In this document: positions 2,418-14,180 of the stretch, piece by piece
Position numbering within the stretch: the first letter of the stretch is position 1
How the letters are laid out: each line of letters begins with the position of its first letter
Virus record (IMG/VR): IMGVR_UViG_3300021279_000020
Origin: a virus
Taxonomy: Duplodnaviria > Heunggongvirae > Uroviricota > Caudoviricetes
DNA: 18,003 nt
Strand: one strand, 5' to 3'
Notes under the pieces: model-generated
Told to the model about the DNA's origin: nothing
Databases searched by the model: none
What the model saw: the letters and a program-made list of their open reading frames with translations, nothing else
Made by a program: the position numbers and the translations under genes

Positions 2418-2457
2418 GGGCGCAGGATAATAACGGTACGTAACTAATCCTGCAATA

Positions 2458-3516
2458 TCATCCGTTCTGACTGACTAAATCCTGAACTTCCCTGACCGTC
2501 TGCTCAAAACGTTCAGTCTCCAGCTCAACGCCAGTTGCACGACGTCCCAGCGCCATCGCTGCTTTGACTGTCGAACCCGACCCCATGAAAAAATCTGCAA
2601 CCAGGTCACCCGGACGACTGCTCGCGCTGATTATCTGCTGCAGCATTTCTGCTGGTTTTTCGCACGGATGTTTCCCGGGATAGTACTGCACCGGTTTATG
2701 CGTCCACACATCGGTGTACGGAACCTGCGCCGTCACGCCAAAATACCGCCGCAGATACTTATATTCACTCTGCAGTTCCGCATACTGCCGGTTCAGTTCA
2801 CTGTATGTGCTGACCAGTTGGTGATGTAGCTTTTCCAGTTCTCCGCGCTGATGCTTCTCTTCTGCCACCCGGGCAAACAGCGCCTGTAATTTCAGATAAT
2901 CGCTTTCGTCCGGTAGCTGCCACTGGCTGGCACTGAACCAGTGCGACACCATGTTTTTCTTTCCTGTGGCATCAGCAATCTGTTTTGCCGTTATCCCCAG
3001 GGCAGCACGTGCATCACGAAAGTAAGAAATCAGCGGGGCCATCACATGCTGTTTCAGTGCCCTGCCCTTCGCCTCATACCCGGCATCTTTCGGGCGATAC
3101 GGCCCCTGATAATGTTCCGCGAACAGAATGCGCTCTGTGGCGGGGAAATACGCCCGCAGGCTTTCCTTGTTGCACCCGTTCCAGCGTCCGGACGGCTTCG
3201 CCCAGATAATATGGTTCAGCACACTGAAGCGTTCACGCATCATGATTTCAATGTCAGACGCCAGGCGATGACCACAGAACAGGTAAAGACTTCCGGCAGG
3301 TTTCAGCACCCGCCAGAACTGCGCAAGACACTGGTCCAGCCATTTCAGGTAATCCTCATCCCCCGTCCACTGGTTATCCCAGCCCTCGGGCTTCACTTTA
3401 AAGTATGGCGGGTCTGTGACTATCAGATCGACAGAGTTTTCCGGTAAGGTCTGGATAAATTCCAGGCAATCAGCGTTGATTAGCTCACAACTGGATATTT
3501 TTACAGTATTAGCCAT
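2458..3516 (-). CDS. Orphan DNA methyltransferase (beta-class N6-adenine/N4-cytosine type), 352 aa
   Basis: Track ORF with ATG at 3516. Motif IV LIVTDPPY is near the N-terminus and the AdoMet motif FFMGSGST near the C-terminus. No adjacent endonuclease candidate. Confidence 0.9.
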   Translation of the reverse strand: MANTVKISSCELINADCLEFIQTLPENSVDLIVTDPPYFKVKPEGWDNQWTGDEDYLKWLDQCLAQFWRVLKPAGSLYLFCGHRLASDIEIMMRERFSVLNHIIWAKPSGRWNGCNKESLRAYFPATERILFAEHYQGPYRPKDAGYEAKGRALKQHVMAPLISYFRDARAALGITAKQIADATGKKNMVSHWFSASQWQLPDESDYLKLQALFARVAEEKHQRGELEKLHHQLVSTYSELNRQYAELQSEYKYLRRYFGVTAQVPYTDVWTHKPVQYYPGKHPCEKPAEMLQQIISASSRPGDLVADFFMGSGSTVKAAMALGRRATGVELETERFEQTVREVQDLVSQNG

Positions 3517-3652
3517 AGATCAATAAGCACTTCTCTGATAGGCTCATTCTGCTTTTGCGCAAAGCAGTGGGCCTGAGGTTTGCTTGTGATCCGGACGCAT
3601 GAGCAGATGGCTGGTGAGTGCCCCTAACACCCACCAGCCGCCCATTTACCAC

Positions 3653-3680
3653 AAATAAAAAAGCCTTCAGGACTGAAGGC
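3653..3680 (-). terminator. Rho-independent terminator (GCCTTC stem, then UUUUUUAUUU on the minus strand) overlapping the stop of the 65-aa ORF
   Basis: Plus strand AAAAAAGCCTTCAGGACTGAAGGC; on the minus strand this is hairpin followed by a T-run. Confidence 0.55.
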
Positions 3681-3864
3681 GTCTGTAACAACCGAACTGA
3701 TAGTCTGCCAGACCCGCCATAACAAGCTGGGTCAGTATTAACTGACAGCGTTCGCGTGAAAGGTACGTATTCTGTGCAATCTCCCCGACTGTCGCCGGTT
3801 CGGTGACGCTTAATTCATTAAACACCACTCTGGCGGTTTCTGTCATATCCTGCTGTTTCAGCAT
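3667..3864 (-). CDS. Small protein, 65 aa, possible winged-helix/HTH fold (MLKQQDMTETARVVFNELSVTEPATVGEIAQNTYLSRERCQLILTQLVMAGLADYQFGCYRRLQS)
   Basis: Internal ATG at 3864 of track ORF 3667..3987, with SD AAGGGG 7 nt upstream. Bracketed by two terminators. Confidence 0.5.
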   Translation of the reverse strand: MLKQQDMTETARVVFNELSVTEPATVGEIAQNTYLSRERCQLILTQLVMAGLADYQFGCYRRLQS

Positions 3865-3987
3865 GTCTTTTCCCCTTTTCCGGTTAACGTGACACACCAA
3901 TAACTCTTGTCGAAAAAGCCAGCAAGCTGAAAGAACGGTATTAATAACCACCAGCGAATTTATTGCGCTGCTGTATATTACGGACAC

Positions 3988-4008
3988 AAAAAAACCACCT
4001 TCCGGTGG
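3988..4008 (-). terminator. Rho-independent terminator (CCACC GGAA GGUGG then U7 on the minus strand), about 75 nt downstream of the Q-position gene
   Basis: Plus strand AAAAAAACCACCTTCCGGTGG. Confidence 0.55.
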
Positions 4009-4080
4009 CTTCCTTGTGCGAAAAAACTTGCGTTTCGCCTCGCGATACAGCCTTGCGAAGCTTATACGGATTGAAGCAGT

Positions 4081-4653
4081 TTATTGATCAGTTTGCAACA
4101 TTTTTTTCTCTGTAACAAAAGCCATACGCATGGGGGCATGTAACATAAATTCAGATATCCCCAACCACTGATCAATTCGGCGTCTGCACGTAACCAACGT
4201 CCACTCAGGATGATCTGCATTTAACCTTTCGGCCATTTTCAGTTTGCTCATTCCCCGTCCTTCGTACCTTTGCCGGAGAATATTGATTAGTCCGGGATAT
4301 TCCCCAAGCACCTCACTGATAACGCGATCAATAATCAACGCCTCTGTGTCTGTACAATGTGACAACCAGCTCTTCTGCTTCCCTCTGGTCATATCCCGAA
4401 AAAATGCCTCAAGTTCCGGTTTATCCAGCCCGGATTTCTTCATTCTGCGTAAAACTTCATTAACTGCTGTTTTCGTCAGCTTTTTCGAAACCAGTAACCG
4501 GTTAAACATATTTCCGGATTTACCCCCACCGATATACGACCACCGCCCCCACATCCGTAATTTCCCCTGGATCCAGACTGCTTCCAGCGTGTTCAGGCGT
4601 AAATGTTCGCCGCTTTTGCCTGTAATTTCCGGATATATCATATTTACGCTCAC
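4081..4653 (-). CDS. Putative late-gene antiterminator (Q-like by position, possibly QuuQ-type), 190 aa; GTG start overlapping the rusA stop (alternative ATG at 4641)
   Basis: Track ORF. It sits directly downstream of rusA and upstream of terminators, tRNAs and late-region cargo, which is the canonical Q position. I see no homology to lambda Q and no zinc-finger cysteines, so the family assignment is positional. Confidence 0.5.
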   Translation of the reverse strand: MSVNMIYPEITGKSGEHLRLNTLEAVWIQGKLRMWGRWSYIGGGKSGNMFNRLLVSKKLTKTAVNEVLRRMKKSGLDKPELEAFFRDMTRGKQKSWLSHCTDTEALIIDRVISEVLGEYPGLINILRQRYEGRGMSKLKMAERLNADHPEWTLVTCRRRIDQWLGISEFMLHAPMRMAFVTEKKMLQTDQ

Positions 4654-5009
4654 TCACTCTCAATTTTGTAAATCTTCACACCCAGCCGACCACCAGGAAC
4701 AAGCTGACCACGTACAATATTGATTTCATCAAACTGCTCGTCATCAATGAGCACTCCCGCATGCGTCAGCGCATCCAGCGGTGCTTTCAGAATGTTGTCC
4801 AGGTCACGACGACGCTTATCCGGTGGCTCTGCAATAATTTTTATTGCCAGCCGTCCGGACAGGCTTAATTTCAGCCGCTGCTGGCGAACAATAAGCGCCA
4901 CTGCACGGCGATAACGCTCCCCGGCTTTTGATACAAAATATGTGCTGCCACGGCGTCGCCAGTAAGTGTTCACCGTCGGCGGGTAAGGTAAAACCAAATC
5001 TATGAGCAT
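4650..5009 (-). CDS. rusA: RusA Holliday-junction resolvase, 119 aa
   Basis: Track ORF with ATG 5009 and SD AAGAGGTGA. The N-terminus MLIDLVLPYPPTVNTYWRRRG and the later DxDN-containing region match the RusA family pattern. Confidence 0.88.
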   Translation of the reverse strand: MLIDLVLPYPPTVNTYWRRRGSTYFVSKAGERYRRAVALIVRQQRLKLSLSGRLAIKIIAEPPDKRRRDLDNILKAPLDALTHAGVLIDDEQFDEINIVRGQLVPGGRLGVKIYKIESE

Positions 5010-5021
5010 CAGTCACCTCTT

Positions 5022-6071
5022 TTACCCGAGCACGCCAGTCGCAAAGGCGTGATCAAGAAAACGAAAAATTAACTCAATCTGAGAGCCGTACTTTTTCTCA
5101 AACTCCAGCGGGTCTGCATGAAGTTCGTTGTGGTGCTCCCGGCACAACGGTAGCGTGAAAATATCGTGGGCCTTTGTCCCCATTCCCCCCTGACCATGAC
5201 CAATCAGGTGATGCGGATCGTCAGCAGGCTTACCACAACACGCACACGGCTGTGTCTTTACCCAGCGCGTGTATTTCTCATTAACCCAACGGCGACGTTT
5301 AGGCCGCCTCATGAACGATTCAGGAGACTCCGGATCAACAGCGATACTGACAACCGTTTTTTTCTGTGGTGGATTTTGTTGCTGGTGGACGTGAAGTGGC
5401 AGCGCAATATTTTTTGTGCGCTGCTTCAGTATGCTGATGGCTGTCTGTTCTCCCGGTACGATGTCACTCTCACGGTATACGGAGCGGATTTTTTCCACCG
5501 GTAATCCCAGCGAACGACGCGCTACTGCCTCAGGTAGTGCATCCACCACCTGATTGCAGGCCGCCCACCAGGATAATTCGGCCAGCGATAACTCCCTCTC
5601 CTGCGTACCGTTTATTGCGTGACGTATAACATCAATCATCCAGACTGCCAGATTCTGCTGAGCAAGTTGATCGAGTGATTCTGATGTCTGGTCGCGCAGC
5701 TGGTTGTCACAGTGCCAGCACAACACCATCGCGCCGGTACCGTAACGGTGAATGACGGTTTCGCTGTGATGATAATCGCCGTGTGGCCACTGGCAGGATT
5801 TCACGTGACGTAATAACCAGTCAGACAGTGCACCTGCACCACCTGCTGCACGAATAACCCGCTCATCGCTGAAAAATGGCAGTAATGTTTCATCCTCTGC
5901 CAGCGGCTGGCGAACGGCAGGAACGACTCCGGACGGCAGACCGCGCATGTTTTTCGGTTCCGGCTCTACCAATATTCTGCCGTTATGGAATGCTGACATT
6001 GATTCACGGCCCGGCTTAAGGAGCACCATCCCGAGTTCCGGTACCAGAACAGGTCGAAGTAATACCCGCAC
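5022..6071 (-). CDS. DUF968-family prophage protein with C-terminal HNH-like motif (YdfU-like), 349 aa, GTG start
   Basis: Track ORF. RBS GGAGG lies 5 nt upstream of GTG 6071. C-terminal CxxC...HH...CREHHNELH is a zinc-binding HNH-type signature. The DUF968 then hok neighbourhood resembles the K-12 Qin arrangement as I recall it. Confidence 0.75.
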   Translation of the reverse strand: MRVLLRPVLVPELGMVLLKPGRESMSAFHNGRILVEPEPKNMRGLPSGVVPAVRQPLAEDETLLPFFSDERVIRAAGGAGALSDWLLRHVKSCQWPHGDYHHSETVIHRYGTGAMVLCWHCDNQLRDQTSESLDQLAQQNLAVWMIDVIRHAINGTQERELSLAELSWWAACNQVVDALPEAVARRSLGLPVEKIRSVYRESDIVPGEQTAISILKQRTKNIALPLHVHQQQNPPQKKTVVSIAVDPESPESFMRRPKRRRWVNEKYTRWVKTQPCACCGKPADDPHHLIGHGQGGMGTKAHDIFTLPLCREHHNELHADPLEFEKKYGSQIELIFRFLDHAFATGVLG

Positions 6072-6072
6072 G

Positions 6073-6345
6073 TTACCTCCAGATGCGCTGCTGGAATGTG
6101 CGGGACGGACGCGGTGGGCGTTCGGAATAAGGGAGCCTGACGGAGATTATCCAGTGACGACGATCGAAGCTGAGGGCTTTCTCAAACTCATATCCGCGCC
6201 TGCGGTAACACTGGATCAGCCATTCGGCCTGTTCTTCAGTGCATGGGTCATGCTGGTACCAGTCAGTTTTAAATACGTGTGAACGCCGCCCCCGCTTAAT
6301 GGTCGGATCGACTTCAGAATTGTGGGATTTTATATGTTGCGCCAT
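6073..6345 (-). CDS. Hypothetical prophage protein, 90 aa (possibly Rem-like by synteny)
   Basis: Track ORF with ATG 6345 and SD GGAGAA 5 nt upstream. Its stop abuts the DUF968 start. Confidence 0.65.
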   Translation of the reverse strand: MAQHIKSHNSEVDPTIKRGRRSHVFKTDWYQHDPCTEEQAEWLIQCYRRRGYEFEKALSFDRRHWIISVRLPYSERPPRPSRTFQQRIWR

Positions 6346-6513
6346 CGGGTTCTCCGGTGACGCAGCAGGTGCCAGTTGTTCAGGCTGACGCGCGAATTGT
6401 AAACCAGAATGCCAGGAAAAAACAAAGTCTGCCGAAACGGGGTAAGTGCGGGTGCGTTGAGGATGCCTGACACATCAGAGGTGGCGAGGGATTTCTCCCT
6501 CGCCTGGTCACTC

Positions 6514-6669
6514 TTACTTCTCAGATTCGTAGTCTACGAAGACAGCAACCTCCGTCTGGCCGGTTCGGATTCGTACCTCGCAGAGGTCTTTCCTCGTTAC
6601 CAGTGCCGTCACTATGACGGTTAAACAGATGACGATCAGGGCGATTAACATCGCCTTTTGCTGCTTCAT
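6514..6669 (-). CDS. hok: Hok/Gef-family type I toxin, 51 aa (MKQQKAMLIALIVICLTVIVTALVTRKDLCEVRIRTGQTEVAVFVDYESEK)
   Basis: Near-identity by recollection to E. coli HokD/RelF. Single TM helix followed by a conserved C-terminal region. Confidence 0.88.
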   Translation of the reverse strand: MKQQKAMLIALIVICLTVIVTALVTRKDLCEVRIRTGQTEVAVFVDYESEK

Positions 6670-6726
6670 AGTCTGCTTCTCCTTGACCTTTCGGTCCGTA
6701 AGAGGCAATCTATATGTGACGAGCAT
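6514..6726 (-). CDS. mok: Mok-like in-frame N-terminal extension reading frame over hok (MLVTYRLPLTDRKVKEKQT then Hok)
   Basis: Track ORF 6514..6726. The extension matches my recollection of the MokC N-terminus (MLNTCRVPLTDRKVKEKRA). Confidence 0.6.
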   Translation of the reverse strand: MLVTYRLPLTDRKVKEKQTMKQQKAMLIALIVICLTVIVTALVTRKDLCEVRIRTGQTEVAVFVDYESEK

Positions 6727-6780
6727 ATAGGGGCCTCACTTCGATTTATAGTCGGGTGGGGCTTTTATCTATCTGCCGTT
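6715..6780 (+). ncRNA. sok: Possible Sok-like antisense RNA opposite the mok start; coordinates approximate
   Basis: Inferred from hok/mok architecture. A plus-strand -35-like TTGACC sits at 6683-6688. I could not place the -10 or the terminator with confidence. Confidence 0.3.
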
Positions 6781-6914
6781 GGTGTTCATGCCCGAGGCAG
6801 ATAGCCTCAAGCACCCGCAGCAATTCTACAAAAACAAACTATTATTTTCTATGTCCTTTCACTTGTCTCATTTCTGACTATACTGATCGCTCACACAACA
6901 CAAAAGGTATAAAA

Positions 6915-13690: not shown

Positions 13691-14180
13691 TTAGCACCAG
13701 TAAAAACAGGTTGCCACTGGTTAATTTACCCTGAAAAGTCAGGGCATAACACGAAAGCGCACGGCGAAGTTCGTATATCTGTACGGCGTCGTTAAATTTT
13801 CTTCGACCGTGCACTTCCGGTTGTGGCAATCCGCGAAATGGCGCGGCGGTAAGTATGGCTGGGGTTTCCTCCATTGCTCCAGAAAATGCACCGGGTTGTC
13901 AGGTTGACCATACGCTTAAGTGACAGCCCCGCCACAATACCCATGTGTAGTCTTTGGTGGCATCAGTTCTACTCCGTGACTGCTCTGCCACCCTTTTTAA
14001 AGTGAATTTTGTGATGCGGTGAATGCGGCTATGCGCACGCGGAACAGTTAAAACCGTAAAGTGGTCTTTTACGGGGCGTAACGGGCATACTTCTGTATTC
14101 CGGCGTTAATTGTTAACTGGTTAACGTCACCTGGAGGCACCAGGCACCACATCACAAAATTCATTGTTGAGGACGCGATA

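Follow-up and report, generated by a model that had tools for sequence, protein, structure and literature searches.

In phage Mu, the small gene com overlaps the gene mom and encodes an RNA binder of 62 amino acids (aa) with a zinc finger. Both genes are read from the same late transcript, the mom product modifies adenine in DNA and is toxic if made early, and the translation start of mom is buried in an RNA stem. In phage lambda, the late promoter pR', adjacent to gene Q, is constitutive, and its transcripts end 194 nucleotides (nt) further on, at the terminator tR', unless the polymerase has been modified by Q. The present analysis concerns an interval that recalls both systems, positions 3,653 to 4,080 of IMG/VR virus record IMGVR_UViG_3300021279_000020 (Caudoviricetes), an 18,003-nt stretch of DNA that is referred to, at its full length, as the window. 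On the minus strand of this interval a small gene, encoding a 65-aa protein with a predicted winged helix, follows the gene at the position of Q and precedes a gene for an adenine DNA methyltransferase. Short RNAs running from pR' to tR', among which the regulatory RNA StxS, have been mapped in Stx phages, with a promoter-to-terminator distance of 258 nt for StxS (PMC7547250). The prophage enzyme M.EcoGII is described, in passages of its report, as non-specific, methylating adenine in any sequence context, as harmful if expressed constitutively and as not expressed in the lysogen (PMC5778455).

The locus resembles com-mom in that a small protein gene lies just upstream of the gene for an adenine-modifying enzyme, and in that the start region of the enzyme gene is paired in a stem of the RNA, which for the present locus is a prediction backed by covariation. 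Unlike Com, the window protein is a winged helix according to its predicted fold and is encoded 150 nt and a terminator away from the enzyme gene, and the methyltransferase is an ordinary S-adenosylmethionine-dependent enzyme. The small protein had no match to the Com zinc finger in Pfam, PHROGs or the Protein Data Bank (PDB), and the likeness is one of analogy only. With the lambda pR'-tR' region and its 6S RNA, and with StxS, the locus shares a first terminator (T1) in the place of the terminator just downstream of the Q-adjacent promoter. It differs from them by a distance of only ~75 nt between candidate promoter and terminator, by a Q of the DUF1133 type, and by the second terminator (T2) and the protein gene that follow. 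The silence in lysogens reported for the prophage enzymes M.EcoGII and M.EcoGI, in passages of the same report, matches a gene placed behind two terminators and a closed leader (PMC5778455). We consider it moderately probable that the interval forms the entrance to the late operon of an Escherichia coli lambda-like prophage, put together from two mosaic modules, in which locks on the methyltransferase gene are combined with a dedicated partner protein.

The frame of the small gene runs on the minus strand from an ATG at 3864..3862 to a TGA at 3669..3667, with a Shine-Dalgarno sequence AGGGG at 3876..3872, 8-12 nt before the ATG. Both the ATG and the Shine-Dalgarno sequence are kept in homologues. 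Codon-aligned comparison with 19 loci gave ratios of non-synonymous to synonymous differences per site (pN/pS) of 0.09-0.23. Compared with other genera, the synonymous difference amounts to 0.69-0.89 per site, near saturation, and the non-synonymous difference to 0.08-0.15, which corresponds to a pN/pS of ~0.1. Judged by this substitution pattern, the 65-codon frame is a genuine protein-coding gene under strong purifying selection, and the region is therefore not purely an RNA leader. An earlier note on this DNA had described the open reading frame (ORF) with its good Shine-Dalgarno sequence between two hairpin-plus-U terminators, flanked by the Q-position gene and the methyltransferase gene; description and coordinates were confirmed, the flanking genes by their Pfam matches (DUF1133/Phage_antitermQ and PF01555). 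The lack of reading-frame conservation that the same note had put forward as a possible outcome is clearly contradicted by the purifying selection. A purely non-coding, Q-controlled leader with tandem terminators, in which the ORF would be an untranslated chance frame, is in line with the non-coding state of the equivalent lambda interval and with both terminators being real. This reading is left with practically no probability by a pN/pS of ~0.1 at near-saturated synonymous divergence, by the conserved start context, by 335 protein clusters and by a confident predicted fold (see below); the chance ORF is refuted by the substitution pattern.

The 150-nt intergenic spacer between the small gene and the methyltransferase gene is far more conserved than the synonymous sites of the flanking genes and includes an invariant 21-mer. 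It holds a leader RNA with a folding energy of -61.4 kcal/mol (z = -4.7). When 14 sequences, the leaders of distant loci among them, were aligned, 12 of the 33 pairs were found to change on both sides yet stay paired, against 4.5 +/- 1.5 in column shuffles, none of which (0 of 500) reached 12. Controls with slid partners gave 0-5 double-changed pairs, and the true pairing holds in 94% of cells. Hairpin I spans 3645..3599, and 8 of the 10 pairs of its upper stem covary. Domain II (3591..3518) has two closing helices that pair the 15 nt directly before the AUG of the methyltransferase gene: helices 3 and 4 join 3591..3583 to 3527..3518, the AUG being at 3516, with compensatory changes in all 3 pairs of helix 4. 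No Shine-Dalgarno sequence was found at working distance from the methyltransferase start. A covariance model of the leader gave exactly one strong match per locus (in the window 3653..3514, 130.7 bits, E = 2.5e-28); the Qin prophage of E. coli K-12 lacks the cassette and has no match to the model either. By its covariation, the spacer is a real structured RNA that pairs the translation start region. No Rfam family matched it at the gathering threshold or up to E = 10, and the leader is a candidate new family of cis-regulatory RNA for Rfam.

Two other causes of the conservation of the spacer were tried and rejected. One is the recombination site Chi (GCTGGTGG), which occurs 8 times in the 18 kb against 0.57 expected from shuffles, 6 times on the minus strand, and of which one copy is the 5' arm of hairpin I. 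Chi as the cause of the invariance of hairpin I was discarded, as four loci (L222, L231, L233 and L237) lose Chi and keep the helix by compensatory changes. In the loci L225 and L227, Chi also lies within the terminator hairpin of an unrelated spacer. The other is a hidden coding frame in the spacer, either a 60-aa TTG frame (3691..3509) or an ATG frame starting MGGWWV; single-base indels, and variation without a three-base rhythm, speak against both, and the candidate frame stops after 7 codons in most genera.

The gene behind the leader encodes a 352-aa β-class N6-adenine DNA methyltransferase (PF01555, E = 1e-43). No restriction enzyme gene was found near it, the neighbours being Q, tRNAs, a TerB protein and lysis genes. 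The enzyme is 95% identical to that of phage 1720a-02, which is named as very similar to M.EcoGII in a passage of the M.EcoGII report (PMC5778455). Assigned through the phage 1720a-02 enzyme, and thus by sequence similarity, the window methyltransferase belongs to the M.EcoGII group; the orphan methyltransferase of the earlier note is thereby no ordinary one but a member of a non-specific group. The pairing of small gene and methyltransferase gene is very conserved. In 75 of 84 loci a gene for a PF01555 methyltransferase comes next, at a constant distance of 147-152 nt behind the small gene. Furthermore, loci were examined for nine distant homologues of the small protein, 20-51% identical to the window protein by direct global alignment. 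Six of these (P0182, P0173, P0148, P0153, P0181 and P0184) show Q, the small protein, a PF01555 methyltransferase and lysis genes. Of the other three, one has as a neighbour a Dam-type methyltransferase adjacent to an insertion sequence, one belongs to a prophage remnant in which the leader is retained, and one occupies a chromosomal site without recognisable phage genes. Because the pairing persists in homologues of such low identity, the small protein appears tied to the methyltransferase, and it is probably a dedicated partner of this enzyme, a regulator.

The protein at the Q position matches Pfam DUF1133 (E = 7e-104) and Phage_antitermQ (33.5 bits, cut-off 26) and belongs to PHROG 753, 'anti-termination protein Q-like'. 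Conserved blocks overlap the end of its gene. In the window these are TTGCAA (4098..4093), a 17-nt spacer, TTCAAT (4075..4070) and a second -10-like TAAGCT (4064..4059). Among 17 distinct intergenic sequences following a DUF1133-type Q the arrangement TTGnnn, 17 nt, TTCAAT, 3-4 nt and TA(A/C)GCTTCGCAA is kept, while the surrounding 3' end of Q is variable. A strict sigma-70 promoter scan gave no call at this element. From the conserved blocks at 4098..4059 we infer a late promoter with a second -10-like element, of which T1 would be the tR'. T1 begins 72 nt past the Q stop codon and consists of the hairpin GCCACCGGAAGGTGG at 4009..3995 followed by seven T (U in the RNA) at 3994..3988. Together with the flanking sequence it has a folding energy of -17.6 kcal/mol (z = -5.0), a value reached by none of 200 shuffles. 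A scan of 3300-4400 with a consensus terminator pattern gave 3 sites, against 0.8 +/- 1.0 in shuffles, and listed T1 only in its plus-strand form. Such a pattern scan alone is weak evidence for terminators; comparison between loci is strong evidence. Indeed, a strong T1-like terminator lies 104-150 nt ahead of the ATG of the small gene in 19 of 20 diverse loci, with unrelated stem sequences.

These loci also show where the modules meet. Where the Q type differs, the DNA similarity to other phages breaks off at about window 3915-3996, at T1. Upstream of the small gene, no fewer than five unrelated Q families occur (DUF1133, 250-aa zinc-finger, 126-131-aa, 229-aa Qin and 236-260-aa types), and in distant loci also the Pfam Antiterm and lambda Phage_antiter_Q types. 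Because T1 keeps its position after at least five unrelated Q families, with unrelated stems, it is read as the tR'-like end of each Q module. On this comparison, the two terminators read as parts of different mosaic modules, T1 being linked to Q and T2 to the small gene. Of the two readings offered in the earlier note, that of a leader under Q control with tandem terminators thus survives in part. Its architecture stands, with T1 shortly after Q, a promoter-like element and terminators before the late genes, but the two terminators belong to separate modules and the interval encodes a protein. Provided that the candidate late promoter is genuine, an RNA of ~75 nt ending at T1 would be present in uninduced lysogens, in a position corresponding to that of 6S RNA in lambda and of the regulatory RNA StxS in Stx phages.

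T2 has the stem-loop GCCTTCA-GTCC-TGAAGGC at 3680..3663, followed by the U-tract TTTTTTATTT from 3662. It folds at -10.5 kcal/mol (z = -3.1), and 1 of 200 shuffles is as good. The TGA stop codon of the small gene is the first triplet of the 3' arm, an overlap that had been rightly noticed before, and the 5' arm is part of the coding sequence. Compensating changes in the non-coding 3' arm keep T2 paired in other genera (TTC/GAA, TCC/GGG and TCCGC/GCGGA), where the stop codon is always located in or next to the loop. T2 is a conserved hairpin and, in this prophage, probably a real terminator. Translation of the small gene could weaken T2, because ribosomes finish inside the hairpin.

Upstream of the small gene a conserved bipartite box is found, with the form TTGCTG-N12-AGAGTTAY-N2-3-GTGTGTCA across loci. 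Box and fixed spacing are kept in every phage-context locus examined, including those in which the protein is only 23-32% identical. The spacing is promoter-like (TTG, 17 nt, TA), with TAYNNG as a non-canonical -10 that has a conserved final G. Dyad symmetry is not consistently present in the box, which occurs only once in the window, and the leader between T1 and the ATG is unstructured (z = 0.1). Several identities of the box were considered. An RNA hairpin, or a pairing of CUUGCUG with CAGCAAG in codons 4-6, was rejected, since no more than 3-5 base pairs form and distant loci lack the complementary sequence. Neither a promoter scan nor reading of the sequence supported a canonical sigma-70 promoter on one strand or the other. 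By-eye comparison with the consensus sequences for sigma-54, sigma-32, sigma-E, CII, LexA, DnaA, boxA and ops gave no fit.

The box is central to an alternative in which the small gene is a self-contained moron, with the box as its own promoter and T2 as its own terminator, expressed in the lysogen and linked to the methyltransferase by shared inheritance. Such a moron would serve the lysogen, for instance by encoding a transcription factor for host or prophage genes, or by excluding other phages. The region downstream of pR' is a known site of moron insertion (PMC4104026). The layout fits, with a terminator, a box of promoter-like spacing, a gene and a terminator of its own in the form of T2. 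Conservation of the box even at 23-32% protein identity is what recognition by an unchanging host factor would predict, and the small gene is intact where the methyltransferase has been replaced. On the other hand, the -10 candidate TAYNNG lacks the near-universal final T and the promoter scan finds nothing. The base composition of the small gene is ordinary compared to its neighbours and gives no sign of foreign origin. Moreover, the methyltransferase accompanies the small gene in 6 of 9 distant homologues although the flanking modules have been exchanged repeatedly, which linkage by itself would hardly explain. The moron is therefore regarded as unlikely, though worth weighing.

The small protein is RefSeq entry WP_000917768.1 and corresponds to orf47 of phage SfV and L23 of phage phiP27. 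A protein search returned 335 clusters, from Escherichia, Shigella, Salmonella, Klebsiella, Citrobacter, Buttiauxella and other Enterobacteriaceae. An exhaustive profile search of 1.84 billion representative proteins gave only 90 matches, many of them fragments. As far as these searches reach, the family is small and confined to Enterobacterales prophages. Residues 1-64 match the profile of PHROG 331, a family of unknown function, with E = 1e-37. AlphaFold2, run on an alignment of 20 sequences, predicts a winged helix with a predicted local distance difference test score (pLDDT) of 84, with helices at residues 5-19, 26-31 and 37-49 and wing strands at 53-56 and 59-62. Structure searches against the PDB and viral folds returned generic winged helices only, with TM-scores of 0.64-0.77 to solved ones, and a sequence profile search of the PDB gave nothing below E = 0.1. 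In Pfam only sub-threshold winged-helix matches were obtained, among which TrmB (PF01978, E = 0.0024, 18.1 bits against a cut-off of 25.6). The resemblance to TrmB-family regulators is limited to a weakly similar winged helix-turn-helix, and the small protein differs by its 65 aa, its single domain and its score below the Pfam cut-off. The RefSeq name 'TrmB family transcriptional regulator' describes the fold, not the function. The PADLOC models for defence and anti-defence gave no match to the small protein.

Database records of this gene are often misleading. Many start it too early, giving 72-, 79-, 94- and 106-aa versions that run through T1 and the leader ahead of the gene, and the names given to the product include 'lipoprotein', 'DUF3927' and 'TrmB family transcriptional regulator'; with the conserved start the protein has 63-65 aa. 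The 106-aa frame from GTG 3987, present in many entries, was rejected because the stretch upstream of the ATG contains indels of lengths not divisible by three (four loci, for example, lack 44 nt). One member of the family, P0175 with 70 aa (loci L235/L236, 2501-2713), is chromosomal and lies beside a Mla/Pqi-like transporter operon and a DUF1398 gene. Q gene, box, leader and methyltransferase are absent from its surroundings, and it may be a prophage remnant or a domesticated copy.

The isoelectric point (pI) of the small protein is 5.1, mildly acidic, in a family ranging from 4.7 to 9.6. Invariant residues are spread across the fold. Conservation is seen in the hydrophobic half of helix 3, in a DMT motif at the N-terminal end and in a basic motif of the wing, while the start of helix 3, where the base-reading residues usually lie, is variable across the family. 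These properties bear on the second reading of the earlier note, a controller-like helix-turn-helix protein that regulates the methyltransferase. As in restriction-modification systems with a classical controller (C) protein, which binds operators as a dimer and would here time the transcription of the methyltransferase gene, the gene just before that of the DNA methyltransferase specifies a small protein with a helix-turn-helix. The locus is unlike these systems, however, in fold class, a winged helix and not the five-helix Xre type, without a match to HTH_3. It lacks a palindromic C-box, the sole conserved upstream element being the asymmetric bipartite box, and has no linked gene for a restriction endonuclease as nuclease partner. 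In addition, it is set in a phage late operon, and transcription from a Q-antiterminated late promoter leaves an operator-type switch little to act on. The conserved gene pairing behind the suggestion thus stands and every testable feature of a C protein fails; because fold, operator and nuclease partner all disagree, the classical C protein is taken as excluded, with very little probability left to it.

The small protein might also act on the enzyme itself, as an inhibitor or antidote, or bind DNA rich in N6-methyladenine (m6A) and, in the producing cell, shield it from methylation-dependent nucleases such as Mrr. The protein is small, mildly acidic and encoded just upstream of an enzyme described as toxic in passages of the M.EcoGII report, which also mention that the expression host of M.EcoGII carries an mcrC-mrr deletion (PMC5778455). 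The conserved residues (the hydrophobic half of helix 3, the DMT motif and the basic wing) are not at base-reading positions, and the best structural matches are winged helices for protein-protein dimerisation in O-methyltransferases. Winged helices that sense m6A are known (PMC11037411). However, the protein matched neither winged helices of the DpnI and Mrr types nor any antitoxin, be it by sequence or by a specific fold. A 150-nt spacer with a terminator is unlike toxin-antitoxin operons, and a protein made late would be absent when the methylated DNA enters the next host. An action on the enzyme or its product is therefore rated as quite unlikely.

In the reading that we prefer, with two modules, locks and a partner protein, the first module is that of Q. 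It would comprise the late promoter overlapping the end of Q, and T1, and would yield only the short transcript of ~75 nt in the lysogen. The second module would be a mobile cassette, found after many types of Q, that consists of the box, the winged-helix gene, T2, the ~140-nt leader and the methyltransferase of the M.EcoGII group. In the lysogen, transcripts from the late promoter would stop at T1 and leakage at T2, and any methyltransferase mRNA would be poorly translated since the leader closes the start site; T1, T2 and leader would thus form three successive locks. Upon induction, RNA polymerase modified by Q would read through T1 and T2. The small protein and the methyltransferase would be the first late products, and progeny DNA would be broadly methylated against restriction. 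The winged-helix protein may be a dedicated regulator or cofactor of the methyltransferase, a part of the model with less support than the locks, and its most likely mode would be to tune methyltransferase expression through the leader or the box. A more specific form of this proposal, by analogy to Com, is that the small protein is an RNA-binding winged helix that recognises the invariant hairpin I and opens the start-site helices, so that protein and leader would form a new type of translational switch. This form is put forward tentatively, as a possibility of rather low probability.

Several observations weigh against this reading. Every regulatory step in it is one that we infer from sequence comparison. 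A good U-tract at T2 is found only in the E. coli/Shigella group and is weak outside it. The pI of 5.1 and the variable start of helix 3 argue, as far as sequence features go, against a classical sequence-specific DNA binder. According to passages of its report, M.EcoGII is active alone, both in vitro and in vivo, and the small protein is therefore not needed for catalysis (PMC5778455). Finally, the components have been found apart. Two loci (L225 and L227) keep the small gene without the structured leader and have a plain terminator and a Shine-Dalgarno sequence instead. In a minority of E. coli prophages (L004-L007) the small gene is kept and another gene replaces the methyltransferase. One locus (L167), and probably three others (L162, L177 and L201), keep leader and methyltransferase without the small gene. 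Because loci exist that lack leader, methyltransferase or small gene, no component is strictly dependent on another.

Gene calls, Pfam and Rfam give the window, around the interval, the gene order of an E. coli prophage of the lambda-like type, with all genes on the minus strand (Table 1).

Table 1 Coordinates of the features of the interval and its surroundings, in window numbering
Feature	Position	Strand	Basis	Remark
DUF968 protein	6071..5022	minus		
RusA	5009..4650	minus		
Q-position gene, 190-aa DUF1133 / Phage_antitermQ protein	4653..4081	minus	Pfam, PHROG 753	
Candidate late promoter (pR'-like)	4059..4098	minus	conserved blocks	overlaps Q stop codon
T1, intrinsic terminator	3988..4009	minus	folding and comparison	
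Bipartite box TTGCTG-N12-AGAGTTAT-N2-GTGTGTCA	3890..3925	minus		25-61 nt before ATG
65-aa winged-helix protein gene	3864..3667	minus	PHROG 331; RefSeq WP_000917768.1	
T2, hairpin and U-tract	3657..3680	minus	folding and comparison	
Leader RNA, ~140 nt	3514..3653	minus	folding, covariation, covariance model	
PF01555 DNA methyltransferase, 352 aa	3516..2458	minus	Pfam	
tRNA trio (anticodons CAT, Arg-TCG, Arg-TCT)	2166-2417	minus		
TerB-domain protein	1565-2068	minus		3' of tRNA trio
STnc100 match, full-length, 147 bits	1129-1338	minus	Rfam	downstream of TerB gene, late region
Chi sites	3631-3638 and 3948-3955	minus		both inside cassette
Further Chi sites	678, 1460, 5381, 7157, 14556, 16432			

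In L005 and some other related prophages STnc100 comes soon after the small gene, and the block of methyltransferase, tRNAs and TerB is missing there. The tRNA trio, which precedes the TerB gene, resembles the ileZ-argN-argO set of Stx phages, and toxin genes occupy this position there. Further upstream, a toxin-antitoxin locus of the hok/sok type is found at 6514-6816 on the minus strand, with an Rfam sok match at 6667-6816 and a 70-aa frame (6726..6514) with a Hok-like C-terminal peptide. A full-length match to the small RNA DicF (61 bits) at 13942-13993 on the plus strand assigns the early and immunity side of the prophage to a Qin/Rac-like family. The genome of E. coli FHI_NMBU_10 (L001) matches window 3400-4300 exactly and is 97.5% identical, with gaps, over 2445-6394. 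Its methyltransferase gene (5069-6117) is marked as frameshifted by RefSeq, and the copy in the window is intact.

The small gene was already annotated, by fold only; its pairing with the methyltransferase and the leader are new as far as the searched literature shows. The accession of the small protein is named in no paper found, and the papers found on M.EcoGII, on the pR' regions of Stx phages and on prophage small RNAs make no mention of small gene, pairing or leader. In the M.EcoGII report the word 'upstream' is absent from the text, and its passages on the enzyme contain no small upstream gene, terminators or leader RNA (PMC5778455).

Enzymes of the M.EcoGII type are in wide use to map chromatin and contacts between protein and DNA, and prophages of E. 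coli, Shigella, Salmonella and Klebsiella commonly carry them, many Shiga-toxin phages among these. In Stx phages that have the cassette, it lies between Q and the toxin genes, and every toxin transcript must pass through it; because of this, T1, T2 and the small protein could affect toxin output. The arrangement of two terminators, a start-closing leader RNA and a 65-aa partner offers a testable design for first silencing and then deploying a harmful enzyme. If the proposed mechanism is true, a toxic, promiscuous adenine methyltransferase would be licensed only in cells committed to lysis, and the cassette would parallel Mu Com-Mom in function, with parts unrelated to it, and would add a new class of cis-regulatory RNA.

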